64,000 nt of DNA from Candidatus Eiseniibacteriota bacterium (GTDB lineage: Bacteria; Orphanbacterota; Orphanbacteria; Orphanbacterales; Orphanbacteraceae): the NCBI GenBank assembly GCA_043809585.1, contig JBDROZ010000022.1, positions 1-64,000 on the forward strand, written 5' to 3'. Position numbers and translations under genes: made by a program. Below, in pieces: positions 10,316-36,118 of this stretch. Under the pieces are notes generated by a model. That model saw only the letters and a list, made by a program, of their open reading frames with translations. It did not search any database and was not told the origin of the DNA. Positions within the stretch are counted from its first letter, which is position 1; every line of letters begins with the position of its first letter.

Positions 10316-11470
10316 GTGTTCGAAGCGATGGAGATCATGGACCGGATGAGGGAGATCGGGCAGGTCGGCGGTCAGGGAATGACCGTCGGCGACGGAGTCC
10401 TCCTGATCGTCTGCATCCTCACCGCTCAGGTCGTCCGCAAGCTGTTCCAGAACTACGTCGTCAAGCGCCTTATAAGGCTCTCGTCGAAGACGGGAAGCGA
10501 AGTCGACGACGAACTCGTCCGGGCTATCGAAAAGCCGGTCGGATTCCTGATCCTCCTGGCCGGCCTTCACGTCGGTCTCAGCCTCGTCGGTCTCCCCCGG
10601 GAGCCGATCGACATCCGCCGCTTCTTCGAAGTGCTCCTCCTCCTTCTCGTGACGGTCGACGTCGCCTGGCTCTTCATGCGCCTCGCCGACGTGCTGGCCC
10701 TCTTCCTCCAGGGGATCGCCATCCGGACCGACTCCGCCCTCGACGACCAACTCGTTCCGCTGATTCGCAAATCGATCAAGGTCGGCGTCGCGATCCTCGC
10801 TTTCGTTCTGATCGTGCAGAACCTCGGCTACCAGGTGACGGGTCTCCTCGCGGGGCTCGGGATCGGCGGCCTCGCCATCGCCCTCGCCGCCCAGAGCACG
10901 CTCGCGAACCTCTTCGGCTCGGTGACCATCATCCTCGACCGGCCCTTCCGGGTAGGCGAGACGATCCAGGGAGACGGCTTCACCGGAGTGGTCGAGGAGA
11001 TCGGGCTCCGGTCCAGCCGGATCCGGACCTTCGAACAAACCCTCGTGACCGTGCCGAACGCGAACCTGGCGAACATGACCGTCGACAACTGGTCGCAGCG
11101 CCCCGCCCGCCGGGTCCAGTTCACGGTGGGCGTCACCTACGAGACGACGGCCGATCGGATGGTAAGGGCCCTCGAGGGGATTCGTCGAATCCTCGCCGGC
11201 CATCCGGAAGCCTTGGAGGAGGGTTCGATCGTTCGGTTCTCCGAGTTCGGCGGGAGTTCCCTCGATATTCTGGTCCGCTTCTTCACGCCCCGAACGGAGT
11301 ATCTCGACTTCCTCCGGGTCCGGGAGGAAGTGAACCTCGCGGTCATGCGCGCCCTCGCCGATCTCGGCCTGGAGGTCGCCTTCCCCACCCGCACCGTTTA
11401 TCTCCGGAACGAAGGATACTGGGGCGATCCGGCTCGGGCGGAGGCGTCCCGAATTCCTGGCCGATCATAG
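10316..11470 (+). CDS. mscS: Small-conductance mechanosensitive channel (MscS family)
   Basis: GLGIGGLAIALAAQ, DRPFRVGE, GVVEEIGLRSSRIRT and AFPTRTV motifs. Several TM helices. Start uncertain. Confidence 0.9.
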   Translation: MFEAMEIMDRMREIGQVGGQGMTVGDGVLLIVCILTAQVVRKLFQNYVVKRLIRLSSKTGSEVDDELVRAIEKPVGFLILLAGLHVGLSLVGLPREPIDIRRFFEVLLLLLVTVDVAWLFMRLADVLALFLQGIAIRTDSALDDQLVPLIRKSIKVGVAILAFVLIVQNLGYQVTGLLAGLGIGGLAIALAAQSTLANLFGSVTIILDRPFRVGETIQGDGFTGVVEEIGLRSSRIRTFEQTLVTVPNANLANMTVDNWSQRPARRVQFTVGVTYETTADRMVRALEGIRRILAGHPEALEEGSIVRFSEFGGSSLDILVRFFTPRTEYLDFLRVREEVNLAVMRALADLGLEVAFPTRTVYLRNEGYWGDPARAEASRIPGRS

Positions 11471-11714
11471 CCTGGAGGATGCACGGGATTTCGTCGCGAG
11501 GATTCGGGTCGCGAGGCGAGAGGCCGACTTGGACGAGCCGCTCCCGGAGGCGGGGCCATAAGATCCTCCCCCCGGGCGCTAACACTTATCGCTCCTAACC
11601 GTCGCGATAAGTCAAAGCGCCCGACGGGCCCCGTCGAGGAAGCGGCGAAAGAAAGGAGGTCTCGTAGCCCGCGAGCCGAAGCCGCAGCAGAAAGATCGTG
11701 CATTCTACAGGCTA
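11468..11714 (+). repeat. Structured palindromic repeat, copy A (247 bp)
   Basis: Terminal arms TAGCCTGGAGGATGCACG / CGTGCATTCTACAGGCTA. Fills the whole gap between two convergent TAG stops. 160-nt core nearly identical to copy B. Confidence 0.92.
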
Positions 11715-12818
11715 CTCGAAGAGGACGGCCAATTCGTCCATGGAGAGCGGGGGCTTCCGGGCGAGGGACAGGTTCTCCGCCACGTGCACGTCCTTGCTCA
11801 TGCCGACGAGCACCGACGCCACACCGGGGATGGAGCGGGCGAATTGGATCGCCTTCTTGGCGTTCGAGTCGATGTCTTTCAATCCCCGGGCGAGAAGGTC
11901 GGGGAACTGGCGGAGCAACCGCCCCTGAAGGAAGGGGGCGGAGAAGGTCATCGCGACGCCGAGCCTGGCCGCGGCGTCCACGGCCGAGAGGGGCATCCCC
12001 TCGACCTCCTGGCCGGCCAGGGCGAATCCCTCCATCATGGCGATGTTGAACGGGAGCTGCACGGCGGCGAAGTGATGGTTCTCGCCGGCCACCTTCCGGG
12101 CGATCTTCACCAGGTCCTCGAGGGAGATGTGCACCGGGCTCGACGGCTCCGCGCGGAACGCCTCCCACGACGACACGCCGTACCGGGCGATCCGCCCGAC
12201 CGCCGCCTCCTCCTCGAGAAACGCGAAGGCCCGCTTCATCCGGTCGAGGAAGGCCCCCCGGGGGAGGACGGCGCGGTGCACCTCCGGATTGTGCAGGTAG
12301 TAGATGTCGATCGTCCGGGCCCGCAGGTTTTCGAGGCTCCGGGTGATCTGGGTCTCGAGGAAGCGCGGCGTCATGGCGTGGCAGCCGCCGACGAGATCAT
12401 CCTCCTCGACGATCCCCGGCTCCACGTATGATTCGCGGATGAATCGGCGGATGTTCTTCGGCGCTTCGCCGTCGAAGGGAACGTATCCCCCCTTCGTACA
12501 GAGGATCACTTCGTTCCGGGCGATCCGGCCTTCGTCCGACAGGATCTCCAGGGTCCGGCCGATGATCTTCTCGCTCCGCATGCAGCGGTAGTTGATCGCC
12601 GTGTCGAGGTGATTGCAGCCGGTCTTCAGGGCCTCGACCAGGGCTCCTCTGTAATCGGCGTCGGTCTCCTCGTTGTGGGGGCCGAGATAGGTGCCGATGC
12701 CGATGGTGCCGACCACGAGGTCGTCGATGAAACGGAAGTGCTCCGGCGACAGCTTCCCGGTGAATCGATCGCGGTAGGCGGCGGTTCCTTCCGCCGTCGC
12801 GCGCCCTTCGATGGTCAA
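11712..12818 (-). CDS. Aldo/keto reductase
   Basis: GIGTY, DTAINY, CTKGG and YYLHNPE (D/Y/K/H tetrad). TTG start after an AAGGAG SD. Confidence 0.88.
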   Translation of the reverse strand: MTIEGRATAEGTAAYRDRFTGKLSPEHFRFIDDLVVGTIGIGTYLGPHNEETDADYRGALVEALKTGCNHLDTAINYRCMRSEKIIGRTLEILSDEGRIARNEVILCTKGGYVPFDGEAPKNIRRFIRESYVEPGIVEEDDLVGGCHAMTPRFLETQITRSLENLRARTIDIYYLHNPEVHRAVLPRGAFLDRMKRAFAFLEEEAAVGRIARYGVSSWEAFRAEPSSPVHISLEDLVKIARKVAGENHHFAAVQLPFNIAMMEGFALAGQEVEGMPLSAVDAAARLGVAMTFSAPFLQGRLLRQFPDLLARGLKDIDSNAKKAIQFARSIPGVASVLVGMSKDVHVAENLSLARKPPLSMDELAVLFE

Positions 12819-12892
12819 GACGGTCTCCTTCCCCGAGGACCGGAAGACGTTAGCAGGCGGTGGGCCCGATTGCAATCCCCGCCGTCGCCCCG

Positions 12893-13657
12893 CTATTTCA
12901 CCCGCGGTTTCGGGCCGCGGATGCGGGAGGCGAGTGTGTGGAAGGGGTGGACCTCGTCCTTCGAGAGGGCCGCGCGCCCGAGGATGACCCGGAAGTTCCG
13001 AAGGAAGACGCGGACCTTCTTCTCGTTCATGTCCCCGGCGAGGAGCGCCTCCCCGAGGTGGGCGTACATCTTCTCGAGCTCTTCGTCCGTGGCGAGGGGG
13101 GGCGCGCCGACCCCTTCCGCCGGCCGCCGGAGGGCGAGGCCGCACTCGTACGAAAGAAGCATCACCGACTGGGCGAGATTGAGGGAGGGGTAGTCGACGG
13201 GGGAGGGGATGGTGACGACGAGGCGGCAGCGGAGCACGTCCTCGTTCACGAGCCCCGTCTTTTCGGGGCCGAAAAGGACGGCCACCTTCTCCCCCGCGGG
13301 GATCTTCCCGAGCCGTTCCCCCCACGCCCTGGGCGTCACCGTCTTCGCCTGGTGGCGCCTCGTACGCCGGGTCGTTCCGACCACCCACGCGCAGTCGGCG
13401 ATCGCCTCGTCGAGGCGGTCGAAGACCTCCGCCCCCTCGAGCAACTCCTCCGCGCCGTGGGCCATGGCGACGGCGTGGTCCGACCGCCACCCTTCCGTGG
13501 GATTCACGAGCACGAGACGGCGGAAGCCCATCGCCTTCAGGGCCCGGGCCGAGGCGCCGATGTTGCCCGGTTCGGTCGTGCCGATGAGGACGAAGCTGAC
13601 ATCGTCCCTCCCCGGTCCGTCGCCTCGGTTCACGCAAAATGGTCCGTCGGGAGTCAT
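12893..13657 (-). CDS. trmJ: SPOUT tRNA/rRNA methyltransferase, TrmJ/LasT family
   Basis: PGNIGASARALKAMG, FGPEKTGL and YPSLNLAQSV. Start approximate. Confidence 0.85.
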   Translation of the reverse strand: MTPDGPFCVNRGDGPGRDDVSFVLIGTTEPGNIGASARALKAMGFRRLVLVNPTEGWRSDHAVAMAHGAEELLEGAEVFDRLDEAIADCAWVVGTTRRTRRHQAKTVTPRAWGERLGKIPAGEKVAVLFGPEKTGLVNEDVLRCRLVVTIPSPVDYPSLNLAQSVMLLSYECGLALRRPAEGVGAPPLATDEELEKMYAHLGEALLAGDMNEKKVRVFLRNFRVILGRAALSKDEVHPFHTLASRIRGPKPRVK

Positions 13658-13796
13658 GGAAGGGAGAGTATCACAGGAGGGGAGGTGACAGACGGTCTCC
13701 ATCACTGACGGCGGGCGAGGAAATCGCCGACGAACGTCCACGGTCAGGTATCGGGAACGCCTCTTCTGAGTGGTGAAGTTGCCCTGGAATCTCGTT

Positions 13797-14043
13797 TAGC
13801 CCGCGGACGCCGAGTGCCTTCGTCGCGAGGGCGAGAAGCGCGCGGCGAGAGGCCGACTTGGACGAGCCGCTCCCGGAGTCGGGGCCATAAGATCCTCCCC
13901 CCGGGCGCTAATACTTATCGCTCCTAACCGTCGCGATAAGTCAAAGCGCCCGACGGGCCCCGTCGAGGAAGTGGCGAAGGAAAGGAGGTCTCGCAGCCCG
14001 CGATGCTCGCCCGCAGTAGAAGGCGCGAGGCGGTCGCGGGCTA
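13797..14043 (+). repeat. Structured palindromic repeat, copy B (247 bp)
   Basis: Arms TAGCCCGCG...GCCTTC / GAAGGC...CGCGGGCTA. Core 13844-14003 differs from copy A 11515-11674 at 5 of 160 positions. The terminal CTA is the pepT stop. Confidence 0.92.
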
Positions 14044-15273
14044 CGCCTTCTCTTTCCCCCAGAGCTTCGCCAGCTCGACGAGCACCTTCACGGACTGCTC
14101 CATCTCCTCGAGGCAGGCGAACTCGAGAGGGGAGTGGAAATTGTGCATGCCCGCCGAGAGGTTCGGCGTCGGCAGCCCCATCTCGGCGAGACGGGCGCCG
14201 TCCGTCCCCCCCCGGATCGACTCGATCTTCGGCTCCATGCCCGCCCGCTTCACGGCCAGGGCGGCGAGCTTCATCGCCCGGGGCTCTTCCTTCATGTGGT
14301 CCGCCATGTTCCGATACTGCTTCTTCACGGCCACGTCGATCTTCGCCTTCGGGTGTTCCGCGGCGACGGTGGCCGCGATCTTCCGGAGCAGCTCCGCCTG
14401 TTCCGGCAGCTCGGCGGAGTCGAAACTGCGGAGCAGGATCTTGATCTTCGCCTCGGCGACGCTCCCCTCCAGCACGTAGGGATGGAGGAAGCCCTCCTTG
14501 CCGGCCGTGGTCTCCGGCGCGAGGCGGTGCCGAGGCATGCGCGTGATGAATTGGCCGGCGAGGCGGATGGCGTTGACCATCTTCCCCGTCGCGAGACCGG
14601 GATGGACGTTGTAGCCCGTGATGGTCACCGTCGCGAGGTCGGCGGAGAAGGTCTCCCCTTCGATCAACCCGGCCGACTCGCCGTCCACGGTGTAGGCCAC
14701 GGCGGCTCCGATCTGCTTCAAGTCAATCTTGTCCGTTCCGCGGCCCACCTCCTCGTCACAGGTGAAGACGACGCGAATCGGCCCGTGCTCGATGTCCGGG
14801 TCCGCCATCAGCTTCGCGGCGGCGGTCATGATGTTCGCCACGCCCGCCTTGTCGTCGGCTCCGAGAAGGGTCGTCCCGTCGGACGTGATCAGGGTCTTCC
14901 CCGCGAGCCCCTCGAGGTGGTCCGTATCGGAAACCCGGATCACCTTCGTCTTGTCGCCGGGAAGGACGATGTCCCCGCCGTCGTACTTCTCGTGGATCAC
15001 GGGCTTCACGTCCTTGCCGCCCGCCTCGGGGGATGTGTCGACGTGGGCGAGCCAGGCCATGACGGGCGCCCCCTTCACGTTGCCCGGCACCGTCCCGATC
15101 ACGATCCCGAACTCGTTCTGCACGACGTTCTCGAGCCCGAGGGACTTCATCTCCTCGGCGAGCATCTTCCCGAGAACGAGCTGTCCCGGCGAACTCGGGA
15201 CGTCCTCGGTCTCGTCCACCGCCGTGGTCTCCACTTTCACGTACCTGAGGAACCGGTCGAGCAGCGTGTCCAT
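14041..15273 (-). CDS. pepT: Peptidase T (M20B tripeptidase)
   Basis: LLDRFLRYVK, AHVDTS, LLGADDKAG, DEEVGRG, IRGGTDG and HNFHS. Confidence 0.95.
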   Translation of the reverse strand: MDTLLDRFLRYVKVETTAVDETEDVPSSPGQLVLGKMLAEEMKSLGLENVVQNEFGIVIGTVPGNVKGAPVMAWLAHVDTSPEAGGKDVKPVIHEKYDGGDIVLPGDKTKVIRVSDTDHLEGLAGKTLITSDGTTLLGADDKAGVANIMTAAAKLMADPDIEHGPIRVVFTCDEEVGRGTDKIDLKQIGAAVAYTVDGESAGLIEGETFSADLATVTITGYNVHPGLATGKMVNAIRLAGQFITRMPRHRLAPETTAGKEGFLHPYVLEGSVAEAKIKILLRSFDSAELPEQAELLRKIAATVAAEHPKAKIDVAVKKQYRNMADHMKEEPRAMKLAALAVKRAGMEPKIESIRGGTDGARLAEMGLPTPNLSAGMHNFHSPLEFACLEEMEQSVKVLVELAKLWGKEKA

Positions 15274-15336
15274 TCGATCAGCCTCCGTCGATCGCGGCGC
15301 CCCTTTCCGCGGGACCGGGGCCGCGCGTATCACTTC

Positions 15337-18012
15337 CTATTGTTCGGGAAGGCGCTTCCGGATCGCCGCGATCCGGAACGTCCGGTCGTTCATCGGGCCG
15401 ACTTCGTCGCCCACCTTTCTGCCGAGAAGCATCTCGCCGAGAGGGGCGCGGTAGGAGATGACCTCGTCGCCCAGCTCCCGGTCCCCTTCGCCGAGGATCC
15501 AGTAGGTCACGTCCGCGCCGTCGCTCGCGACGAGGTCCACTTCGGTGCCGGGCACCACCTCGCCGTCCGGGATCTCGATCTCCTCGATCACCTTCACGAG
15601 CCGCATCCGGTCGTTCAGCTCGCCGAGCCGCTTCGTCGCTTCCGCCTGCTTCTGCTTCGCCGCGTCGTATTCCGCGTTCTCCCGAAGGTCGCCGTGCTCC
15701 CGGGCCTTCCGGATCTCGTGGGGGATCGTCGTCTTGAGGTCCCAGTCGATTCCCTCCGCCTCCTTGCGGAGCCGGGTGAGCGTGGCGCGGGTCATGAGGA
15801 GCCGCCCGGCGTACTTGTCGAGCAGGCCGGCCCCCTTCTGGGGTCTCATGGATTCCCGCTGCGACTCCGCCTCGTCCGCGATCGATCCGAGGGCGGTCCC
15901 ACGGATCGCTTCGAGGATCGGGAAGAGGTAGCGCTCCGAGTGCTTCCAGTTGAGAAGCCGGTTGCGGAGATAGGAGCCGTCATCGGCCGTCGGCGTCGAT
16001 TCGGTCATGCACCTTCGAAGCTCGTCGGAACGGAGCGTCTCGATCGCGTGGTTCCGGTAATTTTCCTTCTCCGGATGCTCCACGATGTTGATGAGGGCGT
16101 GCACGCACGCCCAGACGTCGGGGCATCCGCCCCCCGCGAGCTCCTTGACCACGTGAATGACGGCGCTCGACCGCGCGGGGCTCCCGTGGAGCACCGCGGC
16201 GATCTCCCGCTCCCGCTCCTTCTCGTTCCGGGTGGAAAGAACGGCCCAAGCCTCGCGGCGCACTCCCTGCACTTTCGAGTCGAGCAGGACGCCCGCCACC
16301 ACCGCCTTCCGGTCCTCGGAAACCATGGAGAGGAGAGTCCTCTGCTGTTCCGTCGTGACGGGGGTCAGTTCCGGCGCCCGGAGAAACTCGTCGAGGCTCT
16401 TCCGGAACTCGTCATCGTCCGTGCCCCCGAGACGGTGCAGGAGGAGGTGCGTCTGGATCCGCTCCGTCGCCGTCCGCTCTTCGTACCGGGCGAGGGACTG
16501 GAGCTGGTGGCCGTAGCGCTTCGCGAGCCGCTCCATTTCCTCCGGATGCTGGTCGAGAAAACGGAAGAGGAGGTCGAGGCTCTTTCGGAGGTTGCCAGCG
16601 AGGTCGACTTCGGGAAGCGCCGACGAATCCTTTCCGTTCCGGATTCGGATCACCTTGCGAAAGATCTGCGAAAGGTCGAAGCGCGCATCCTTCTCCGCTT
16701 CCTTCTTCGCGTTCTTCCACCAGTCCGCCCAACTCGCGGGGGGCAGGATGCCGAGGGTGACGAGGAGCTTCTTCACGTCGTCCTGATTCGCCCCTCCGCC
16801 GAGGTGCACCAGGGCGTGGTAGAGGAACTCGGCGCGGTTCTCCTTGAGCGCCGCCATCATGCCGTCCCGGTCGAGGTAGACCTTCACCCGGAGATCCGTC
16901 GGCCGGAGCAGGGTGAGGGCGGTCTTCGCGAGGGAGACGCTCATCCGGTGCAGCCCCTTCTCCCTGAACCGGATCGTCAGGCTCTCCCCGTCGTTGGCGA
17001 GGATCTCGCCGACCCCCCAACCGTGATGGAGGACGTGCCGCCCGGGCGGCATCTCGAGCAGTTTGTCGAGGGCCTGGAGGGCCTGTTCGGCCGGGACCTT
17101 CGGGTCGGCGATGCCGGCGGTCTTGAAGAGCGTCGCCGGGTCTCGAATGCCGTCGTGGGCGGCGATCCCCGCGGCGGCGGCGAATTTCCGATAGGCGTCC
17201 CGGTCCGGGGATTTCTCGAACACCTTGCGGAGGATCTCCCAGCTCTCCTTCGCGAGGCCGTGCTCGAGGACGGCGTTCTGGGTCAGCTCGAAGAGGCTGA
17301 CCGCCGTTTCCGTCTCCGATGCCTGGGTGAGGATCTCGAGCGACTCGAGCACGGGGAGAAGGGTCTCCCGGGAGGGGCTCTCGAGGATGTAGAGCGCCCC
17401 CTCCTCGAGGCGCTCCCTGGCGTTCTTCCGGGCGAAGCCGGGGAGAGAACGGGCCAGGAGAAGCAGCCCCCCCTCTTCCTCTCCCGACGCGATCCGGGAG
17501 GCGCCCACGGCCCAGAGGATCCGGTGGTTCTCGTCGTCGATCTCGAGGGCCTTCGCCAGGAGCTCCGGTCCGGCCTCCTTCCCGCCGCTCTTCTCCCAGA
17601 GCCTCGCGGCCACCCGCGCGAGTTCGGGCGTGCCGACCATGGGAAGCGCCCGATCGAGAACCGCGCCGAGATCGGCGTAGCGTTTCTTCGATTCGAAACG
17701 CTCGCAGAGGACCGAGAAGAGTTGGCGGGCGATGATCTCGTCCCCCGCCCGAGCCTGAAGGTATCCGGCGGCGTAGAGAACGCCCTCCCCGGCGTCCTTC
17801 CCCTGCACCAGGGGATTGAGAAGCGACAGGTACCCGCCCCCCTCCCCCTTTTTCATGACCTCCTCCACGGCGGCGTCGACGCGCTCCACCAGATCCCGGT
17901 CGACCACGCCCGCCCCGCCGAGGGGGTCCTCGCTCAGCCTCAGGATTTCTCTCAGATCCGCCAACTTATCGGTCTCCTCGCTGTCACGGACACGTGCCCG
18001 CAAAAGTACCAA
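15337..18012 (-). CDS. Large (~890 aa) multidomain protein with C-terminal GreA/GreB domain
   Basis: C-terminal AREHGDLRENAEYDAAK and ISYRAPLGEMLLG. Long helical N-terminus. TTG start uncertain. Confidence 0.85.
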   Translation of the reverse strand: MVLLRARVRDSEETDKLADLREILRLSEDPLGGAGVVDRDLVERVDAAVEEVMKKGEGGGYLSLLNPLVQGKDAGEGVLYAAGYLQARAGDEIIARQLFSVLCERFESKKRYADLGAVLDRALPMVGTPELARVAARLWEKSGGKEAGPELLAKALEIDDENHRILWAVGASRIASGEEEGGLLLLARSLPGFARKNARERLEEGALYILESPSRETLLPVLESLEILTQASETETAVSLFELTQNAVLEHGLAKESWEILRKVFEKSPDRDAYRKFAAAAGIAAHDGIRDPATLFKTAGIADPKVPAEQALQALDKLLEMPPGRHVLHHGWGVGEILANDGESLTIRFREKGLHRMSVSLAKTALTLLRPTDLRVKVYLDRDGMMAALKENRAEFLYHALVHLGGGANQDDVKKLLVTLGILPPASWADWWKNAKKEAEKDARFDLSQIFRKVIRIRNGKDSSALPEVDLAGNLRKSLDLLFRFLDQHPEEMERLAKRYGHQLQSLARYEERTATERIQTHLLLHRLGGTDDDEFRKSLDEFLRAPELTPVTTEQQRTLLSMVSEDRKAVVAGVLLDSKVQGVRREAWAVLSTRNEKEREREIAAVLHGSPARSSAVIHVVKELAGGGCPDVWACVHALINIVEHPEKENYRNHAIETLRSDELRRCMTESTPTADDGSYLRNRLLNWKHSERYLFPILEAIRGTALGSIADEAESQRESMRPQKGAGLLDKYAGRLLMTRATLTRLRKEAEGIDWDLKTTIPHEIRKAREHGDLRENAEYDAAKQKQAEATKRLGELNDRMRLVKVIEEIEIPDGEVVPGTEVDLVASDGADVTYWILGEGDRELGDEVISYRAPLGEMLLGRKVGDEVGPMNDRTFRIAAIRKRLPEQ

Positions 18013-18204
18013 ATGAGGGACCCTTAGGACAACGTCCGTGCTCGTTCCTCTCCCCGATGCCGATTGACCCGGCGGCCCGGCTGTGGTGTCATGGAGGATG
18101 AAAATCGCCCGCGATGCCCCGTTCTCCAGGCGGTTCCGGAGGACAGTCCGCCGGGTCGAATCACACAACCTATTGTAATAAAGTCGATTAGAGGAGTGAC
18201 TCCC

Positions 18205-19875
18205 ATGGCTCTGGTCGAGTGCGTACCGAACATCAGCGAGGGACGGGATCGGGGCGTCATCGACGCGGTGACCGCGGAGGCGGAGAAGGCCGGGGTGACC
18301 CTGCTCGACGTCGATCCCGGGGCGGCGACGAACCGGACGGTCATCACCTTCGTCGGGACGCCGGACCAGGTCGTGGAGGGGGCGTTCCTTCTCGTCAAGA
18401 AAGCGTCGGAGCTGATCGACATGAGAAGGCACCATGGCGCCCACGCCCGGATGGGGGCGACCGACGTCTGCCCCTTCGTCCCCGTTTCCGGGATCACCAT
18501 GGAGGAGTGCGCGGCGCTCGCCCGGAAGCTCGGGAAGCGGGTCGGCGACGAACTCGGCATCCCGGTCTACCTCTACGAGCACGCCGCGAGTTCGCCGGAG
18601 CGGAAAAACCTCGCCTACGTCCGGATGGGCGAATATGAAGGGCTCGCGGAGAACATCAAGAAGCCGGAGCGGAGACCCGACTTCGGGCCCGCCGCGTTCA
18701 ACGCGAGGGCGGGGGCGACGGCGGTCGGCGCCCGGAAGTTCCTCATCGCCTACAACATCAACCTGAACTCGCTCGACAAGAAGCTCGCGGGCGACATCGC
18801 CCTCGAAATCCGCGAGGCGGGGCGGAACAAGCGGGGCCCGGACGGGAAGTTCGTGCGGGACAAAGAGGGGAAGCCGATCGTCGAGCCCGGGCTCTTCAAG
18901 GAAGTGAAGGCCGTGGGGTGGGTGATCGAGGAGTACAAGCGGGCTCAGATCTCGATCAACTTCACCGACTACGAGGTCTCCCCGATCCACGCGGTCTTCG
19001 ACGAGGTGTGCCGGCAGGCGACGGAGCGGGGCATGCGTGTGACGGGGAGCGAACTCGTCGGCCTCATTCCGAGAAGCGCCCTCCTCGCGGCGGGGGTCCA
19101 CTATTTGAAGAAGCAGGGCCGGTCCGTCGGCGTGCCCGAGCCGATGCTGATCGAGACGGCGGTCCAGTCTCTCGGCCTCTCCGACCTCTATCCCTTCGAC
19201 CCGGCGGAGAAGATCATCGAGTACCGCGTGGCGGAGCGAATGGGGCCGCTGGCGTCGAAGAGGGTCTTCGACTTCTGCGACGAGGTCTCCACCGAATCCC
19301 CCGCCCCCGGCGGGGGGAGCGTGGCCGCCCTCTCCGGCTCCCTCGGCGCCGCCCTCGCCGCTATGGTGGCGAACCTCACGGTCGGCAAGAAGGGGCACGA
19401 GAACGCGTGGGGCGAGATGTCCGAAGTCGCCGCCAAGGGGCAGGAACTGAAGGACTTCTTTCTCCGGGCGATCGACGAGGACACGAACGCCTTCTCGGCG
19501 GTGATCGACGCCATGCGCCTCCCGAAGGGGACGGACGAGGAGAAGAGGGCCCGGGACGGGGCGATCCTCGCGGCGATGAAGGAGGCGGCCCGGGTCCCCT
19601 TCCACACCCTCGAGAGGACGCCGGAGGTGATCGACATCGCCGCGGCGACGGGCGAGAAGGGGAATCCCGCGAGCGTCTCCGACGCGGCCGTCGCCGCCCT
19701 CTGCGCCGAAGCGGCGGCGGAAGGCTCCTGGTTCAACGTCATCATCAACCTGAACGAGATCGACGACCCCCCCTTCGTGAAGAAGATGCGCGAGGGCGCC
19801 GACGCCATTCTCGCGAAGGTCCGGGCGGGCTCGAAAGCCGTGCGGGACTCCGTGCGGAAGTCGCTCGGGGCGTAG
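18205..19875 (+). CDS. ftcd: Bifunctional glutamate formiminotransferase / formiminotetrahydrofolate cyclodeaminase
   Basis: LVECVPNISEGRD, HARMGATDVCPFVP and the cyclodeaminase SPAPGGGSVAA. GAGGAG SD. Confidence 0.93.
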   Translation: MALVECVPNISEGRDRGVIDAVTAEAEKAGVTLLDVDPGAATNRTVITFVGTPDQVVEGAFLLVKKASELIDMRRHHGAHARMGATDVCPFVPVSGITMEECAALARKLGKRVGDELGIPVYLYEHAASSPERKNLAYVRMGEYEGLAENIKKPERRPDFGPAAFNARAGATAVGARKFLIAYNINLNSLDKKLAGDIALEIREAGRNKRGPDGKFVRDKEGKPIVEPGLFKEVKAVGWVIEEYKRAQISINFTDYEVSPIHAVFDEVCRQATERGMRVTGSELVGLIPRSALLAAGVHYLKKQGRSVGVPEPMLIETAVQSLGLSDLYPFDPAEKIIEYRVAERMGPLASKRVFDFCDEVSTESPAPGGGSVAALSGSLGAALAAMVANLTVGKKGHENAWGEMSEVAAKGQELKDFFLRAIDEDTNAFSAVIDAMRLPKGTDEEKRARDGAILAAMKEAARVPFHTLERTPEVIDIAAATGEKGNPASVSDAAVAALCAEAAAEGSWFNVIINLNEIDDPPFVKKMREGADAILAKVRAGSKAVRDSVRKSLGA

Positions 19876-20052
19876 AACCGGATTCACAACCTCCGTCCTG
19901 CTGCGATCGGCCGCAAAGCCGTGCGGCGGTGTCCTCGGGCGAAAACGTCCCGGGCGGCCTTCGTAGGCCGTCTCCGGGCGTTTTCACCCTCGTTCCTTGC
20001 GACCGACTCTTCGCTCGATCTCGCGACGGAGGAGGTTATGAAGCCGATTCTC
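19873..20052 (-). repeat. Structured palindromic repeat, divergent copy D (180 bp)
   Basis: Arms TAGAACCGGATTCACAACCTCC / GGAGGTTATGAAGCCGATTCTC. On the minus strand it carries TCCGTCGCGAGA...CCCGGAG...TCGCAGCAGGA. Begins at the ftcd TAG. Confidence 0.8.
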
Positions 20053-20067
20053 GTGGGCGGGGGGGCC

Positions 20068-22861: not shown

Positions 22862-23072
22862 GCGAAGGCACCTCGGAAGCCCGGACGGACGGACGCCCGG
22901 TCCGGCGGCCCGGACCTGCAGTGACGAGATCCACGAAGATGGCCGCATTATCCCAAAACCGGACGGGGCGGTCGAGGAAAAGATCTCCCGCCGCCGCGCG
23001 CACGGGGGGAGATCGGCTCGCGCGGCGCCCAGGCGCCCTATTACGCCGGGGCGCCCCGGAATCCCGCGGGCC

Positions 23073-24254: not shown

Positions 24255-24355
24255 GGCTCCGCGGCGCGTTCGAAACCGGACCCTCCACCCTCTTCCCGGT
24301 CCGAAGAACATCGAAAAGCAGCATACCAGAGGCCCGGCACGCAGACAACGAGGCG

Positions 24356-26712: not shown

Positions 26713-26742
26713 GACGACCTCCCCCGGGGGGGCGAAGCGGGG

Positions 26743-29668: not shown

Positions 29669-29740
29669 CGAACCCGGCGAAGGAGGCCGGCGGGGGGAAG
29701 GGCTTCGCTTTGGTTCATAGTGCGAGCCTCGCTCGGGAGC

Positions 29741-30976
29741 TCAACTCCGGGAAGCACGGTTGCCGCGTGGGAGGCGCCACTCGCCCCGCAGGGTCTGGAC
29801 CATGTGGTCCAGCCGCCGGTGGTTGTCGCCGTCCCCCTTCCAGGAATCGACGGCGTCGAGTCCGAAGGCGATCGTGACGCTGCCGACGAGGGCCAGGATG
29901 AACGAGGCCGCGACGATCAGAGTCCTTCTCGGCCTGTGCCGCTTCTCCGGCGGAGTCGCCCGGTCGAGCAACTGGATCGTGGGCGTGTCGCGGGTCGCCA
30001 TGATCTTCGCCCGCTCCAGCTCCTGCGCGAGAAAGACCTGGATCTTCGACTGGATCTCGACATCCCTTCGCAGACTCATGTACTCGATCGCGAGATCGGG
30101 GAGCCGGTTCAGAGAGGGGTACGGTTTGGAATCTCCGGAGTCGAGGAATGCGCGTACCAGGTCCGTGTCGCCGAGCAATTGAGTCAGCTGCCCTTCGAGA
30201 TTCTCCTTCTGCGCCCGCAGCACCCTCACTTCGGGATAGGCCCCGGTCGCGAAGCTCTCGAGCGCGGCGAGCTTGATCTCGATGGTTCGGATCTCCGATT
30301 CGATCTCCGCCGCGGCGGTGATGAGCGCTTCGGCCTGCGCCGTCAACTCGATCGCGCCGTGCTCCTTCTGGAAGTCCCTCAATGCCGACTCGGCGGCCAC
30401 GACCTGCCCTTCCGTCACCCGGAGACGCTCCTCGACGAACCGCAGGGTCCTCTTTCCCTCGGTCATCCGGGTGTTCTGATTGAATTCGTCGAGAATCCCG
30501 AGGTAGTCGTTCGCCATCTCGGCGGCGCGAACCGGATCCCGGTCCTCCACGATGACCTCGACGAGGCCCTCGTCGCTCACCTTGATCGTGCGGTGCCTGC
30601 GATGTTCCTTCACGGCTTCGTCGAGGTTGTCGACATCGTAGAGCGTCATGAGATCGAACCGTTCGATGATGGCCTCGGATATGAAGCGGCTTCGAAGGAC
30701 GGCGCCGTAGACGTCCGAAGCCGTGGCGAACCAGGGGAGCTTCGCCGTGGCCGCCGCCATCTGGAGGGCTCCGAGCGTCGTCAAGGGATCGACGGACGTC
30801 TCCGGCGGCAGGATGACCGCGGTGGACTGGTACCACTGGGGCAGGAGGAGCGACACGATCACCGCCGCGACGACGACGATCCCGACGTTGGTCGCGATCA
30901 TCCTTCGGTGGCGAAAGAGCGTCTCCATGCCGTCGAGAAGGGAGAACCCCCGCCGCCTGTCGTTCCCGTCCGACAT
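29741..30976 (-). CDS. Polysaccharide chain-length determinant (Wzz/GumC-like, no kinase domain)
   Basis: Two TM helices around a coiled coil. YQSTAVILPP and LDRATPPEKRHRP. Confidence 0.85.
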   Translation of the reverse strand: MSDGNDRRRGFSLLDGMETLFRHRRMIATNVGIVVVAAVIVSLLLPQWYQSTAVILPPETSVDPLTTLGALQMAAATAKLPWFATASDVYGAVLRSRFISEAIIERFDLMTLYDVDNLDEAVKEHRRHRTIKVSDEGLVEVIVEDRDPVRAAEMANDYLGILDEFNQNTRMTEGKRTLRFVEERLRVTEGQVVAAESALRDFQKEHGAIELTAQAEALITAAAEIESEIRTIEIKLAALESFATGAYPEVRVLRAQKENLEGQLTQLLGDTDLVRAFLDSGDSKPYPSLNRLPDLAIEYMSLRRDVEIQSKIQVFLAQELERAKIMATRDTPTIQLLDRATPPEKRHRPRRTLIVAASFILALVGSVTIAFGLDAVDSWKGDGDNHRRLDHMVQTLRGEWRLPRGNRASRS

Positions 30977-31142
30977 GATCTTCCGCCTCGCGCATCGGGT
31001 AAGAAAGCGAACGCCACAGGGAATGAGCGATCCAAGGGTATCCCGAGTCCGTGGACCTTGTCAATCGCGGCCCGGTCCGCGCGAGGGCCCGCGACTTTCC
31101 CGACGCTGCGGATCGGAATCGCTTCGTTGCCCCCCCCTACCT

Positions 31143-32498
31143 CTACCGCCCGAGGACGCTCGGATCGATTCCGGTGTTCCTTCGGACCGCGACGGCGAAC
31201 CAGGCGTTCCGGACGACGCCCGCCGCGATCGCCGCCGCCGCCGCGCCGGCGGCGGACCAGGGGGGAATGAGCAGCGCGCAGAGGATCAGGTTCGCGGCGG
31301 TCCCTACGGCGGTCCCGAGCGCCGCCTGCCGTTCGTTTCCCGTCATCATGAGCGCCGGAACGGCGGGACCGACGGCGCTCCCGACCGCGAGCCCCGCGGA
31401 GAGCGCGACGAGGACGCCGTATCCCGGCACGAACTCCGGCCCGAAGAGGGAAAGGAACCAGCGGCCGAAGAGAACGAAGGCCGCCGTGGTGACGAGGGCT
31501 CCGGCGAGGGCCACGCGGGCCGCCTTCGTCGCCACCCTCTGCATCTCCCCCCGGTCCCCGGCGGCGTGGAAACCGGCGAGCGTCGGGGCGATCACCGTGT
31601 TCACCGTGAACTGGACGAAGAGGACGAACCAGGAGACCTGAACGGCGACGGCGTAGACGCCCACCGAATCGGCGCCGAGAATCGAGCCGAGCATGATCGT
31701 CCCGATCCGGGAGTTGAAGATCAGGACGCCGCTCGCGAAGAGCAGATAGAACGCGCTCCGGGCCCACGGGCGGGCCAGAAACCGGGGCTCCGCGTCTGTG
31801 ACGACCGGCGGTATCCGGCGCCGGAGCAGTCCGGTCGCGACGACGAGCGAGACGGCGACGGCGACCACGTTCATGAGGAGAACCCAGGTCACGCCTACGG
31901 AGGAACGAAACAAGACCACGGAAATCGAAACGAGACCGGCGAAGAGGGCGGGCCGGACGAGGCTCTCCGCCACCTGGCCGAGCAGGATGTGCTGGAAGCC
32001 CTGGAGGGCGGCCTGCCGAACCCGGGTCAGGGCGACCGGGGGAAGGTAGAGCAGGGAGACCAAGAAGGGGACCAGCGCGTCGGACGCTCCGCTCCCCGCG
32101 GCGACGCGCGCCACGAGCGCCGCGACGGCGACGAGAAGAACCGAAACGAGGAGAACGGCCCGGCGGGACGCGTCGAGGAGCCCCCGGAGGGTCCCCCACG
32201 ACCGGAGCGTCACGTTCGAGGCGACCTCCCGCACGAGAAGACGGTCGACGCCCATGACGGCGATCACGGCGAGAACTTCGACCCACGCCATGGAGTAGGC
32301 GTAGACGCCGTAGCCGGCGGCGCCGAGGACGCGGGCGAGCAGGAGGCTGACGAGGAAGCCGAACAGGGTCGCCGCCGAGCGGAGCCCCGCGGTGCCGATC
32401 ACCCCGCGCGTGAGAGGGCGTTTTCGATGGGCCAGGGCCCGGCCCGCCCAGCCGGAGCGGGGGCGGGGGTCCGCCGCTGGCGAGGGACCGAGAGTCAT
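31143..32498 (-). CDS. Second Wzx-type flippase
   Basis: LARVLGAAGYGVY, VGVYAVA and LIPPWSAAGAA. Multi-TM. Confidence 0.8.
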   Translation of the reverse strand: MTLGPSPAADPRPRSGWAGRALAHRKRPLTRGVIGTAGLRSAATLFGFLVSLLLARVLGAAGYGVYAYSMAWVEVLAVIAVMGVDRLLVREVASNVTLRSWGTLRGLLDASRRAVLLVSVLLVAVAALVARVAAGSGASDALVPFLVSLLYLPPVALTRVRQAALQGFQHILLGQVAESLVRPALFAGLVSISVVLFRSSVGVTWVLLMNVVAVAVSLVVATGLLRRRIPPVVTDAEPRFLARPWARSAFYLLFASGVLIFNSRIGTIMLGSILGADSVGVYAVAVQVSWFVLFVQFTVNTVIAPTLAGFHAAGDRGEMQRVATKAARVALAGALVTTAAFVLFGRWFLSLFGPEFVPGYGVLVALSAGLAVGSAVGPAVPALMMTGNERQAALGTAVGTAANLILCALLIPPWSAAGAAAAAIAAGVVRNAWFAVAVRRNTGIDPSVLGR

Positions 32499-32652
32499 CA
32501 ACCTTCCCCTTCCGTTCCGTCATGGAATCCGGACGGACGGGTCGGAACCTATCACGGGGCGGCGCGGCGTTCAATCGGGCCGGCGGGGGCCTTCCCTCCC
32601 GTCCCCCCTCCTGGTATCCTCGCGATCGAACGACCGACCGGGAGAACCGCCC

Positions 32653-33303
32653 GTGACTTGTCGACTCTCCATCCGCGAACTCACCCTCCGCCCCGCCCCC
32701 GAGGCGAAGGAGATCCGCGTCACCGTCGAAATTCCGGAAGGAGGGGCGGCCGTGCTGCAGGGGGCGTCGGGGAGCGGGAAAACGACTTTTCTCCGGGCCG
32801 TGGCGCGCCTCCGGGAGGTCGAAGGGGGGGAGATCGATCTCCGCGGGACGCCGTGGAGGGCGATCCCTCCGCGGGAGTGGCGGCGCCGGGTCGTCTTCGT
32901 CCCGTCGAAGCCCCAGTTCCGGGAGGGGACGGTGGAGGCGAACCTCCGCTTCCCCTTCTGCCTCAAGATCGCGAAGGGGGAGACGTTCCCGGGCGAGCAG
33001 GCCCGCGCCCTCGCGGGGCGGATGGGCCTGGACGAGAAACAGCTCGGCCGGGAGACACGGGTACTCTCGGACGGAGAACGGGCGAGGGTCGGCCTCCTAC
33101 GCGCCCTCCTCGCGAAACCGGAAGTCCTCCTCCTCGACGAGCCGACGGCCCCCCTCGATCCGGAGAGCCGGACCGCCGTCCTGGACCTGCTCCGGGAGGA
33201 GCGGGAGCGGACGGGCCTCGCCCTCCTCGTCGCCTCCCACGACGAGCGCCTCGCCGAGAGCCTCGGCGCGGCGGTGTGGCCCCTGCTCGGGAGGGACGAA
33301 TGA
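32653..33303 (+). CDS. ABC transporter ATPase (FetA/YbbL-like)
   Basis: GASGSGKT, LSDGE and LLLDEPT. GTG start after GGAG. Confidence 0.85.
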   Translation: MTCRLSIRELTLRPAPEAKEIRVTVEIPEGGAAVLQGASGSGKTTFLRAVARLREVEGGEIDLRGTPWRAIPPREWRRRVVFVPSKPQFREGTVEANLRFPFCLKIAKGETFPGEQARALAGRMGLDEKQLGRETRVLSDGERARVGLLRALLAKPEVLLLDEPTAPLDPESRTAVLDLLREERERTGLALLVASHDERLAESLGAAVWPLLGRDE

Positions 33304-34088
33304 GCGGCGCCATTCCCATCAGCAATCTGCAGCTTCTCTTCGCGGTGGTCCTCGTCGCCCTGGCGGGGGCGATCTCGGCCCTCCTCCGGCTCGGGCTCCT
33401 CCGCTCCCTCCTCTGGGGGACGGTGCGGACCGTGGTGCAGCTTCTCGTCATGGGGCAGATCCTGGTCTTCCTCTTCTCCATGGAAGCCTGGTGGGTCGTA
33501 CTCGGCGTGGTGGCGCTCATGTGCCTCTTCGCCGCCCATACGGCCCGCTCCCGGACGCCCCACGCCGTTTCCTATTCGATGCGCTACGCCTACCTCTCCC
33601 TCTTCACGACCACCGTGCTGATCGCCGTGACGGTCTGCGCGCTCATCGTGCGGGCCGACCCGTGGTGGTCCCCCCGCGTCGCCATCCCCCTCGCCGGGAT
33701 GATCCTCGGGAACTCGATGAACGGGATCGCCCTCGCCCTCGACCGGCTCTTCTCCGAGACCCGCTCCCGGGCGGGCGAGATCGAGGGGCTTCTCGCCCTC
33801 GGCGCCTCGCCGTGGGAGGCGATCCGGGAACCCCTTCGCGCCGCCCTCCGGGCGGGCATGATCCCGGTGCTCAATTCGCTGAGGGCGGTGGGGCTGGTGT
33901 TCATTCCGGGGATGATGACGGGTCAGATCCTCGGCGGCGCCGACCCTCTCACGGCGGTCCGCTACCAGATCGTGGTGATGCTGATGATCGCCGCGGCGGT
34001 CGCCCTCGGCAGCCTGATCCTCGTCGGCCTCTACCACAAGCGCCTCTTCACGGAAGACGAGGCGCTCCGGCCGGAGCTACTGCAGTAA
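33300..34088 (+). CDS. fetB: ABC permease UPF0014 (FetB/YbbM-like)
   Basis: RTVVQL, IPLAGMILGNSMN, VGLVFIPGMMTGQIL and AVRYQIVVM. ATGA overlap with the ATPase. Confidence 0.88.
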   Translation: MSGAIPISNLQLLFAVVLVALAGAISALLRLGLLRSLLWGTVRTVVQLLVMGQILVFLFSMEAWWVVLGVVALMCLFAAHTARSRTPHAVSYSMRYAYLSLFTTTVLIAVTVCALIVRADPWWSPRVAIPLAGMILGNSMNGIALALDRLFSETRSRAGEIEGLLALGASPWEAIREPLRAALRAGMIPVLNSLRAVGLVFIPGMMTGQILGGADPLTAVRYQIVVMLMIAAAVALGSLILVGLYHKRLFTEDEALRPELLQ

Positions 34089-34101
34089 CGAGGACGCACC
34101 C

Positions 34102-34128
34102 AAAAAAAGGGGGGCGCGGGCCCCCCTT
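34102..34128 (-). terminator. Rho-independent terminator
   Basis: AAAAAAAGGGGGG-C-loop-G-CCCCCCTT hairpin with a U7 tail on the minus strand. Confidence 0.75.
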
Positions 34129-34151
34129 CGCGTTTCATCTTTCCGAACATG

Positions 34152-34886
34152 CTACCGGAACAGGCCCTTGACGCTGCCCCAGGTGGAGGACTCGGTCGAC
34201 GTCCCGTCGGTGCAGTTGTGCTCCACATTGTCCAGGCCCCACGAATCGACCGTGCTCACCGCGGAGAAAGTAGCCTGGTCGAAGGGGACGGTGCTCACGA
34301 TCCCGACGAACGAATCGGGAAGGTAGCGATCGGGGACGGTGATCATGCCGACGCTCCCGCCGCCGCTGAAGACCTCGATCGAGAACCCGCCGAGGGGGGA
34401 GCTGTCGGCCACGTAGGCGCCGATGGCCGTCGTCGGGCCGGCCATGTCGAAGGTTGTCGATCCGGTGGCGTAACCGCCGCCGGCACTCATGTCGTTGCTG
34501 AGGAAGTTCGGCTCCGTCGGCAGAAGACCGGCGGTGAACATCGGGAAGGGGAGGGATCCGGAAGACGTGACGTAGACCCCGGTCGGGCCCCCGATGTACG
34601 GTGAATACCCGGTCACGTTCGTGATGCACCGATCCGCGAGCTGGGTCGTGATCTGCGTGCCGCTGGGATAGCTTTCGAACGGGATCATCGTCGTGGAGCC
34701 GGTCACGTCCGCGAGCCACACGCCGTGGTCCGTGTAGCCCGTCACCGAGAAGGTGTTGGTGGCGACTCCCGGCTCGTGGTCGTCACTCGCCGCGATCGGG
34801 TTGCCCTCGGTGGCGAAGGCCGACGTCGCGGCGACGAGGGCGACGAAGAGGCCGGCCCGAACCATGACTTTCACAATCGACTTCAT
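34152..34886 (-). CDS. Secreted beta-rich protein with C-terminal TWGxVKxLFR tail
   Basis: Signal peptide (…VAATSAFA), AAGGAG SD, ends STESSTWGSVKGLFR. Confidence 0.8.
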   Translation of the reverse strand: MKSIVKVMVRAGLFVALVAATSAFATEGNPIAASDDHEPGVATNTFSVTGYTDHGVWLADVTGSTTMIPFESYPSGTQITTQLADRCITNVTGYSPYIGGPTGVYVTSSGSLPFPMFTAGLLPTEPNFLSNDMSAGGGYATGSTTFDMAGPTTAIGAYVADSSPLGGFSIEVFSGGGSVGMITVPDRYLPDSFVGIVSTVPFDQATFSAVSTVDSWGLDNVEHNCTDGTSTESSTWGSVKGLFR

Positions 34887-35154
34887 ACGGGAGACTCCTT
34901 TTTCGTGTGGGCGATCGGGAAACCCCGGCCGCCACTGGGGTGAATCGTTCGATCCGAGAGAGATTCTCGACTGTTCCGCATCAGAAGTGAATTCCGAAGC
35001 CAACCTCGCAGGGGAACGCCGTCTCCGTCGAATCGGGTTACGGTTTCAGAGGGACCTGGAGCATGATACCTGGACCTTTACTCGATGTCAACCGTAATCT
35101 CCTAAAAAGAGACCGTGAGAATATAACCTGGTTATCGCGATAGGTTTGCGGGTG

Positions 35155-35787
35155 TTATGGACGACAGTGCTTTCCGGTCGGCCTCGGGGGGGGACAATCG
35201 ACTCGTCGTCCGTTCGTTAGGAGATCGAGAAACAATCTGTGGACGGCCGGATCGCCCGTCAGTTCGGGGTGAAAAGTGGCGGCGAGGATTTTCCCCTGCC
35301 GGACGAAGACCGGGTCGCCGTTCCACGTGCCGATGACTTCGACGCCGGCGCCGGCGCGGGTGATTCTCGGCGCCCGGATAAAGACCATCGGGAACGGTTC
35401 CCCCCGAATGTTCCCTTCCGCCTCGAAGGAGTCGACCTGGCGGCCGTAGGCGTTCCGCTCCACCGATACGTCGAGGAGGCCGAGGGACCGTTGGGCGGGG
35501 CCGGTCACCTCCTTCGCGAGGAGGATCATCCCCATGCACGTCCCGAAGACATACCCCCCATCGGCCACGAACTTGCGGAGGGGTTCCTCGAACCTGTAAT
35601 CCTCGAATAGATGAAGGAGCGTGGTCGACTCCCCTCCCGGGATCACGAGACCTTCTACCCCATCCAACTCCTCGGGAAGCCGGACCTCCACCACCTCCGC
35701 CCCCAGCCGCCGCAGCACCTCCCCGTGGGCGTGAAACGCACCCTGGAGGGCGAGAAGTCCGATCTTGGGTTTTCGGATAGTGTTCAC
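35155..35787 (-). CDS. pdxT: PLP synthase glutaminase subunit
   Basis: GLLALQG, PGGESTT, GTCMG, RNAYGRQ, FIRAP and FHPELT. Confidence 0.93.
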   Translation of the reverse strand: MNTIRKPKIGLLALQGAFHAHGEVLRRLGAEVVEVRLPEELDGVEGLVIPGGESTTLLHLFEDYRFEEPLRKFVADGGYVFGTCMGMILLAKEVTGPAQRSLGLLDVSVERNAYGRQVDSFEAEGNIRGEPFPMVFIRAPRITRAGAGVEVIGTWNGDPVFVRQGKILAATFHPELTGDPAVHRLFLDLLTNGRRVDCPPPRPTGKHCRP

Positions 35788-35829
35788 TCTTGGTCCCTCG
35801 CGAATCCCCGAATTCTCTTCCCATCCGGA

Positions 35830-35921
35830 GCCCCGCCGGACTCGGTGGCGGCTCGTCCAAGTCGGCTTTTCGTCAGGCGGTCCGAGCCCTCGTAACGGAG
35901 ATTCATGCATAATCCAGCCTG
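35830..35921 (-). repeat. Degenerate left-half copy (E) of the structured repeat, inverted relative to copy C
   Basis: Minus strand reads CAGGCTGGATTATGCATG..TCCGTTACGAGG..GCCGACTTGGACGAGCCGC. The last 19-mer is exact to copies A and B. Confidence 0.75.
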
Positions 35922-35932
35922 GCAAGAGTCAG

Positions 35933-36118
35933 CGGTTGTCGGCGATCCGAACCAGATTCGTCGCGAGGGGCCGGAGTGCGCGGCGAGAGGGATGTTCGGA
36001 CGAGCCGCCGCCCGGAGGCGGGGCCTTTGCCCCGTCGAGGACGGCGGCGCAGGAGAACGCCCCTCGCAGCCCGCAATCCGGTACCGCAGTCGAAGCTGGT
36101 GAGGATCGCCGGCAACTA
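35933..36118 (+). repeat. Structured palindromic repeat, copy C (186 bp, lacks the inner module)
   Basis: Conserved TTCGTCGCGAGG, GGCGAGAGG, GGACGAGCCGC, CCCGGAGGCGGGGC, GCCCCGTCGAGGA, CTCGCAGCCCGC and CCGCAG. Arms GTTGTCGGCGATCC / GGATCGCCGGCAAC. The terminal CTA is the pdxS stop. Confidence 0.9.

Follow-up and report, generated by a model that had tools for sequence, protein, structure and literature searches.

The stretch of DNA analyzed in this study (64,000 nt, called the window below) belongs to contig C22 of a 4.24-Mb metagenome-assembled genome (MAG) of Eisenbacteria (123 contigs, 66% G+C, 97.5% complete), and it carries several copies of a rod-shaped palindromic element. This element is probably a non-autonomous mobile DNA family of the MITE type (miniature transposable elements with inverted repeats), which would use TA as its target, be moved by a DDE transposase acting in trans and have its arms kept complementary by arm-to-arm correction. 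Several of the properties by which bacterial MITEs are defined (PMC2229807) were found: the copies are non-coding, under about 200 bp long and multicopy, they have terminal inverted repeats with 5'-TA-3' ends and an apparent target-site duplication, and both filled and empty sites occur among relatives. It is this anatomy together with the empty sites that argues for a MITE-type element with a TA target and not for an attC- or REP-like one.

Reading from the outside towards the apex, an element consists of a TA, a terminal arm of about 22 bp, a left box (TTCGTNRCGAG), short helices with purine-rich loops and an apical hairpin. From the apex outwards follow a right box (CGCAGYAGAA), the other arm and a second TA, so that the whole is an imperfect palindrome. 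The elements are 179-183 nt long (about 180-190 nt overall), or 246-247 nt where a second hairpin is nested in them.

Copies, fold and age classes

A preliminary description of this DNA, made from the letters alone, had named four full copies in the window (A to D). All four were found in place when the sequence was read, and a fifth, truncated copy (E) is also present. The copies in the window are as follows.

11468..11714, + strand: copy A, full element, TA at both ends, covariance model (CM) score 156 bits
13797..14043, + strand: copy B, full element, CM score 153 bits
19873..20052, - strand: copy D, member of subfamily D1 by subfamily comparison
35844..35922, - strand: copy E, truncated left half of the '181' type, positions 5-83 of the hidden Markov model (HMM)
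35930..36120, + strand: copy C, full element of the old type, CM score 162.5 bits

Copy E lies just upstream of a PdxT-like open reading frame (ORF), was found through an inverted match in a repeat scan that also linked A, B and C, and is absent in the related genome G003. Both motifs, TYCGTCGCGAGR and YCGCAGYNGRA, were seen, and pairing is as described in the stems that had been quoted for A, B and C. Copy D, on the other hand, had been regarded as a divergent copy, and it is instead a D1 member, in a subfamily that has 32 full copies when D1 and D2 are taken together.

The long rod fold that had been proposed was recovered. As RNA, copy C folds at -126.6 kcal/mol (z -7.9) and copy A at -144.8 kcal/mol (z -8.1), with 0 of 200 dinucleotide shuffles folding as well in either case, and when 26 old copies were folded singly the same rod appeared in all of them (-104 to -144 kcal/mol). 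An alignment of 32 copies (26 C-like and 6 of the '181' type) was used for covariation, and the covariation of the stems seen earlier in a few copies holds in this larger set: two-sided changes occur at 54 of 59 consensus pairs, 92.3% of paired cells can pair compared to 67.2% after shuffling, and the covariation score is 0.682 compared to 0.212 after shuffling and at most 0.145 with partners slid by 1-3 columns. None of 500 shuffles reached any of these measures. The two arms of a copy pair at 94.5% in 120 copies from five genomes, but only at 57.8% when left and right arms are taken from different old copies. As had been claimed, then, it is the pairing of the arms and not their sequence that is kept, along with the internal loops; sequence is free in the outer arms, while the interior, meaning boxes and loops, is conserved. 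The freedom of the terminal arms needs to be narrowed, however. It holds for old copies, whose arms are rewritten yet still paired and whose boxes and loops are kept, but within the young subfamilies the terminal arms are conserved inverted repeats. The contrast that had been drawn with classical MITEs falls away for the same reason, since young copies, like bacterial MITEs (PMC2229807), keep their terminal inverted repeats and are bounded by TA at either end.

The copies of the window belong to a large family. Searching the genome by blastn with copies A-D gave 199 merged places, and profile HMMs of the two main types gave 229, which cover 33,208 of 4,239,599 bases (0.78%); 55 of the HMM places are at most 60 nt from one of the 246 contig ends. 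The CM, built from the 32 aligned copies, matched 118 of the 150 candidates scored. Single copies are scattered over most contigs, with housekeeping genes and tRNAs as neighbors, and about 17 right halves that stand alone are truncated remnants; no transposase ORF is evident in the 130 nt read upstream of them. Several age classes can be told apart by median pairwise identity: the '181' subfamily (15 full copies, 0.956), D1 (16 copies, 0.972), D2 (13 copies, 0.914) and an old type that includes B and C (53 copies, 0.63), with D1 and D2 being 0.717 identical to each other. Recent bursts have produced subfamilies with conserved inverted ends. These 229 places, the subfamilies of 91-97% identity and the empty sites in relatives bear out the earlier view that this is a multicopy, mobile, non-coding family.

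Copies A and B are of the old type and are longer because a second small hairpin repeat, foreign to the rod, is nested in the apex (about 11558-11626 in A and 13887-13955 in B); about 10 further copies have the same composite structure. The interiors of A and B are 90% identical over 203 nt, and their terminal arm and second stem are wholly different, for which the simplest reading would be conversion of the interior between neighboring copies. The nested repeat is about 65-70 nt long, and at one orthologous copy it is present in G007 (L304) but absent in G004 (L116), which suggests that a second mobile hairpin family uses the rod's apex as a landing site. On contigs C6, C45, C3 and C58 there are larger composites, whose apex holds two or three such hairpins. 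In addition, a D2 copy abuts a '181' copy and shares a TA with it in at least five places (C36:3978-4340, C5:18559-18856, C70:12485-12686, C23:88500-88709 and C121:35927-36170), and the CTAG formed by an element's end looks like a favored site for a further insertion.

Target sites and related genomes

The ends of the '181' copies are sharp (C-TA-GCCTGG...CCAGGC-TA-G), and TA was found on both sides of all 15. In the D copies TA is present on the left in 25 of 32 and on the right in 28 of 32, and since the bases outside the TA vary, a 4-nt duplication is excluded. In old copies TA has been replaced by other complementary dinucleotides. Sites without an element were found in relatives. The site of copy D is empty in G003, where the sequence ...GGGGCG-TA-GGGGCGG... 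has a single TA inside a TAG stop codon and the genes are 17 nt apart. Copy A is absent from the syntenic spacer of G003, G004, G007 and G008, and copy B is missing from that of G004, G007 and G008. In the other direction, some of the sites occupied in G003, G004 and G007 are empty in this genome, and the sites corresponding to G004 copies read (C)TAG here. The flanks and three of the empty sites together point to duplication of a TA target.

Insertion is at TA, very frequently the one inside a TAG stop codon, and the TAG at the element's own end then serves as the stop. With genes called by a crude ORF and GC3 (G+C at third codon positions) filter, 27 of 64 ORFs that read into a copy end exactly in the element's first three bases; by class the figures are 9 of 16, 26 of 48 and 10 of 13. 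In the window each end of A coincides with an ORF stop, as does one end of B, of C and of D. Copy A's first TAG (11468-11470) terminates the + strand ORF 10316-11470, and the - strand ORF 11712-13637 stops at the copy's last CTA (11712-11714). The last CTA of copy B (14041-14043) ends the - strand ORF 14041-15333, and on the + strand the first TAG of copy D (19873-19875) ends the ORF 18064-19875, with the next ORF after it. Copy C lies in the spacer between the - strand ORF 36116-37003 and the PdxT-like ORF, also on the - strand, and the stop CTA at 36116-36118 is inside the end of the element.

The CM was also run on eight other genomes of the same bacterial family, of which five had matches (at least 30, at least 34, at least 42, at least 39, and 1) and three had none. 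Forty copies were taken from these relatives, and about 15 of them have both flanks on one contig in this genome; for five or six of those 15 a copy is present at the same site here, and at least six of the sites are empty. Orientation was kept in all five cross-genus same-site pairs. The site of copy C, for example, holds a copy in the same orientation in G003, and its arms are quite different but paired. In the same-genus pair G004-G007 the arms are 0.75 identical, the inner stems 0.96 and the loops 0.90, and the adjoining left flank cannot be aligned. In the spacer between convergent genes that holds copy A here (window 11470-11712), G008 (L092) has a 30-nt perfect palindrome made of two '181'-type terminal arms only, which could be either an internally deleted copy or a remnant of excision.

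Orientation relative to genes differs between age classes. Where a single inward-reading ORF accompanies an old copy, the mRNA carries the complement of the reader's strand in 31 cases and the reader's strand itself in 3; the reader's strand is here the purine-rich strand on which the copies were written in the preliminary description. The young copies have no such bias (5:3 for '181' and 7:6 for D), and this suggests that the bias arises after insertion.

Distribution in other phyla

The family is not restricted to Eisenbacteria. A pattern made of the apical hairpin and the right box found 41 loci in public sequences, 38 of which were full-length CM matches that also carried the left box, even though it was not in the pattern. 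A pattern of the two boxes alone found at least 117 loci; among the matches listed, 70 of 80 match the CM and 69 of 80 do so at full length. The lengths are mostly 135-142 nt, although 133-159 nt was allowed. It should be noted that by our own estimate about 100 matches could be expected by chance at even base composition, so the CM check is needed. Judging by their titles, the records come from Nitrospirota, Acidobacteriota, Alpha-, Beta- and Gammaproteobacteria, Verrucomicrobiota, Planctomycetota, Bacteroidota, Gemmatimonadota, Omnitrophota, Patescibacteria, Bdellovibrionota, Thermodesulfobacteriota and one actinomycete. Records labelled with at least 12 phyla thus contain both the boxes and the rod, at a G+C content of 0.40 to 0.71, and the best-scoring public locus is in a record titled Candidatus Eisenbacteria. 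Among the records with CM matches are those of a Pelagicoccus strain and of Stackebrandtia albiflava. All 13 loci from other phyla that were folded gave rods. A copy from Lysobacterales had no blastn match in 72,556 plasmids.

Direct repeats of 3 nt, TAA or TTA (TWA), are present in 4 of 8 copies of a Nitrospirota subfamily. For 38 loci from other phyla the side of the inward-reading ORF was recorded: 13 are as in Eisenbacteria, 5 are opposite, 2 have ORFs on both sides and 18 on neither. A 4.5-Mb Opitutales chromosome (G062, reached through L231) has 89 forward and 94 reverse matches to the end motif, with a prevailing strand that switches along the chromosome. Between about 0.35 and 3.0 Mb most of its copies have one direction (27 to 9), and outside that interval most have the opposite one (20 to 11), as if replichore or gene strand had an influence.

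No matching transposase, Rfam family or published description was found within the scope searched. The comparison with Rfam, which had been named as a check earlier, gave 0 matches over the window at the gathering score and 0 at E<=1 over seven copies from four lineages. In the literature the box strings were found only under unrelated titles among the matches listed, and searches on MITEs, on insertion sequence families and on Eisenbacteria gave no description of this family; supplements were outside the scope of this search, and the MITE candidates in those of preprint 10.1101/2024.01.18.576219 might include the family.

Partner enzyme, rival explanations and known repeats

According to the model favored here, a transposase supplied in trans would duplicate TA, or TWA in the case of the Nitrospirota subfamily, and such duplications would point to a DDE enzyme of the IS630/Tc1-mariner-like or the IS5/Harbinger-like kind. 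What the enzyme recognizes is probably the fold together with the subterminal boxes, and not the sequence of the arms. The arms would stay complementary mainly because one is corrected on the template of the other in the hairpin, with some help from selection. After insertion, selection may remove those copies that place the purine-rich, better-folding strand in the mRNA of an inward-reading gene. The TA flanks agree with a MITE derived from an IS630/Tc1-mariner element, but the ends of the resident IS630-family elements do not match, and an IS5/Harbinger origin agrees with TWA in half of the Nitrospirota copies, but the Eisenbacteria copies have a 2-nt TA.

A number of observations weigh against this model. 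As had been noted before, the window holds no cognate enzyme, and the searches of this genome turned up neither a gene with the arms and boxes on both sides nor a co-occurring IS630-type gene, although insertion sequences may be unassembled in its 123 contigs. The three resident IS630-family copies have ends unrelated to those of the element, and a search for DDE_3 had no match in G003 and G007, which contain at least 30 and at least 42 CM matches. PF13340, PF13586 and PF13359 gave 0 matches in this genome, and its four PF01609 genes are of other types. With respect to the target, the filled counterparts of the three empty sites have one of their two TAs mutated, and one copy found only in G004 has junctions without a clean TA. 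The five cross-genus same-site pairs are no more alike than random pairs (arms 0.43-0.60 compared to 0.46 +/- 0.11), which means that they are either saturated orthologues or hot spots of repeated insertion. Another same-genus pair is near-identical throughout, and the copy is decayed in a third genome, G008. In most old copies the mRNA strand is the less well folding one, which a plain DDE model does not predict, and the crude gene calls behind the stop-codon and orientation counts are a further weakness.

Two other candidates for an origin were considered and set aside. The ends of an IS1634-like element (G000:C55:5673-7682) agree with the consensus of the old arms in their first 7 letters and in 7 more, but the boxes are absent, which is too weak a likeness for a partner. 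This element contains a 592-aa DDE_Tnp_1 ORF, its 21-nt inverted ends start with TAGCCCG and include CGGATTC, and a second transposase that is 37% identical to it is located on C121. The other candidate, in which the arms would be a pre-existing hairpin target split by insertion of the interior, was dropped because only 6 short arm-only palindromes were found compared to about 60 full elements. Pairs of end motifs 0.7-3 kb apart were found neither in this genome nor in one Nitrospirota MAG. A different palindromic repeat (TAGCCTTGATC...GATCAAGGCTA, 64-84 nt) was observed at C51:15294-15377, at C18:38815-38878 and in the right flank of the C55 element, and one copy of it is about 290 nt from a Y1 transposase gene on C51.

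It is quite unlikely that the element is instead, in line with the preliminary description, a single-stranded DNA hairpin moved by an HUH enzyme (RAYT or IS200/IS605-like) or another structure-specific enzyme, whose substrate would be the folded strand with its unpaired purines and for which the sequence of the arms is irrelevant, though several features of the fold lean in that direction. The reader's strand is the better-folding one in 68 of 68 copies (-116.4 compared to -103.0 kcal/mol for the complement as RNA) and in 67 of 68 with DNA parameters, G.T pairs outnumber A.C pairs by 348 to 77 in 105 copies, GA occurs in internal loops on both strands of the fold, and the arms pair although their sequence is free. 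In REPINs, changes that compensate each other across the hairpin are described as common (PMC3116915). The genome has two Y1_Tnp genes, and no DDE partner was found. Set against this are the palindromic termini, the TA on both sides with a single TA in empty sites, and the TWA repeats of the Nitrospirota subfamily; to our knowledge, IS200/IS605-type elements make no target duplication and have unlike ends. Insertion into a lagging-strand template should also give an orientation bias, whereas the young copies have none. Finally, no copy was found near the two Y1 genes among the places identified on their contigs, and the copies are dispersed and not arrayed, so that nothing links the family to the HUH/RAYT or integron systems to which it had been likened.

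Another explanation assigns the old copies to the host: only the young copies would be selfish DNA, and the host would have recruited the old ones as cis-acting elements, RNA or DNA, between genes (such as protectors of mRNA 3' ends or operon processing sites), where selection would keep them locus by locus. This would account for the contrast between the 31:3 orientation of old copies and the unbiased young ones, for the same site and orientation in all of the cross-genus pairs found, and for the G004-G007 pair, in which the interior is conserved next to a left flank that cannot be aligned. The typical setting, which is a stop codon, a rod, a purine-rich stretch and the next ORF, would also be in keeping with it, as would the lean of the other-phylum loci to the same side (13 to 5) and the action of RNase III on hairpins of Neisseria MITE transcripts, as far as part of PMC2229807 describes it. 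However, the strand in the mRNA is the less well folding one, a same-site copy has decayed in G008, about two thirds of the relatives' placeable copies have no partner here, same-site copies are no more alike than random pairs, and there is no Rfam match. On balance, takeover by the host appears unlikely. Chance palindromes or ordinary intrinsic terminators, which would also be G+C-rich hairpins at gene ends, have next to no likelihood. The 32 aligned copies share boxes and architecture, 0 of 500 shuffles reached any of the measures, there are hundreds of copies, some of them 97% identical, and in the flanks examined no T run follows the rod on either strand, except for A runs in five copies.

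While the MITE-type reading with a TA target is thus preferred, the breadth of the family, the fold bias towards one strand, the free but paired arms and the orientation-biased retention are unusual and go beyond an ordinary MITE. A bolder proposal, which is tentative and somewhat doubtful, is that this is a pan-bacterial family defined by shape, a rod in which G.A-rich loops join short helices and which has two subterminal boxes, and moved by an enzyme not yet recognized as its partner, with the arms being read as a helix and the old copies being kept as intercistronic elements far longer than neutral DNA would be.

Several known repeats resemble this family in part. Integron attC sites lie after the stop codon of a gene and are read as a folded single strand, with variable stems, conserved unpaired bases and a strand-specific fold; they stand in cassette arrays beside an integrase and end in R''/R' core sites. 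The family shares with them the location after a stop codon, the variable stems, the conserved unpaired bases and the strand-specific fold. The differences are that its copies are dispersed singly, end in TA with G/C-rich arms and are about three times longer than most attC sites, and both the dispersal and the TA ends speak against integron attC sites (an integrase was not searched for). The plant Stowaway (TA) and Tourist (TWA) MITEs are moved by Tc1/mariner and PIF/Harbinger transposases, respectively. They are similar in the foldback of the whole element and in the TA or TWA duplications, both kinds of which appear here in different subfamilies, but they are eukaryotic, lineage-restricted families, and the link is by analogy only. 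Bacterial MITEs have usually been described genus by genus, and their transposases have mostly been guessed.

Among bacterial repeats, REPINs consist of two conserved 20-40-nt REPs around a free spacer, with a RAYT gene flanked by them, according to parts of PMC3116915 and PMC3733652. They are likewise dispersed hairpin doublets with compensatory changes, a high copy number and persistence in a lineage. In the present family, however, it is the arms that are free and the interior that is conserved, TA flanks both ends, and no copy was seen near the Y1 genes among the places identified on their contigs. The RUP elements of Streptococcus pneumoniae have ends that match the resident IS630-Spn1 and are thought to be moved in trans (PMC2229807, in part). 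They are comparable in size (about 100-200 nt), in their TA target and in their many near-identical copies, but here the ends of the three resident IS630-family copies are unrelated to the element, and two copy-rich relatives show no such gene. The Correia/NEMIS elements of Neisseria are, in the part of PMC2229807 that deals with them, small non-coding repeats with terminal inverted repeats, TA ends, locations at gene ends, long stem-loop transcripts that can be processed and no proven transposase. The likeness is in being non-coding, in the inverted ends with TA, in the location at gene ends and in the stem-loop of the transcript. The Correia elements belong to one genus and keep the sequence of their ends, whereas here a rod with purine loops has arms that drift with compensation and boxes that recur in many phyla.

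The finding has several consequences. One architecture of about 190 nt with two short boxes in records labelled with at least 12 phyla offers a way to look for the enzyme by co-occurrence. The family also offers a natural test of stem pairing under drift at about the neutral rate, in which selection is set against arm-to-arm templated repair. It supplies stop codons and intercistronic hairpins to G+C-rich genomes, in which TA is scarce. It breaks assemblies, as 55 of the 246 contig ends of this MAG fall in a copy, and a copy can wrongly be taken for a riboswitch, an RNA gene or an operator.

Two further observations concern the window itself. Long ORFs overlap on opposite strands at 15337-19887 (-) and 18064-19875 (+). 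Alignment with relatives and GC3 favor the + strand ORF near 18-19.9 kb, so the 1516-aa minus-strand ORF is probably over-extended. An apparent coding region of a repetitive protein contains, at 53103-53659, short direct repeats (CCGTAGACGCC...) spaced by 30 and 60 nt.

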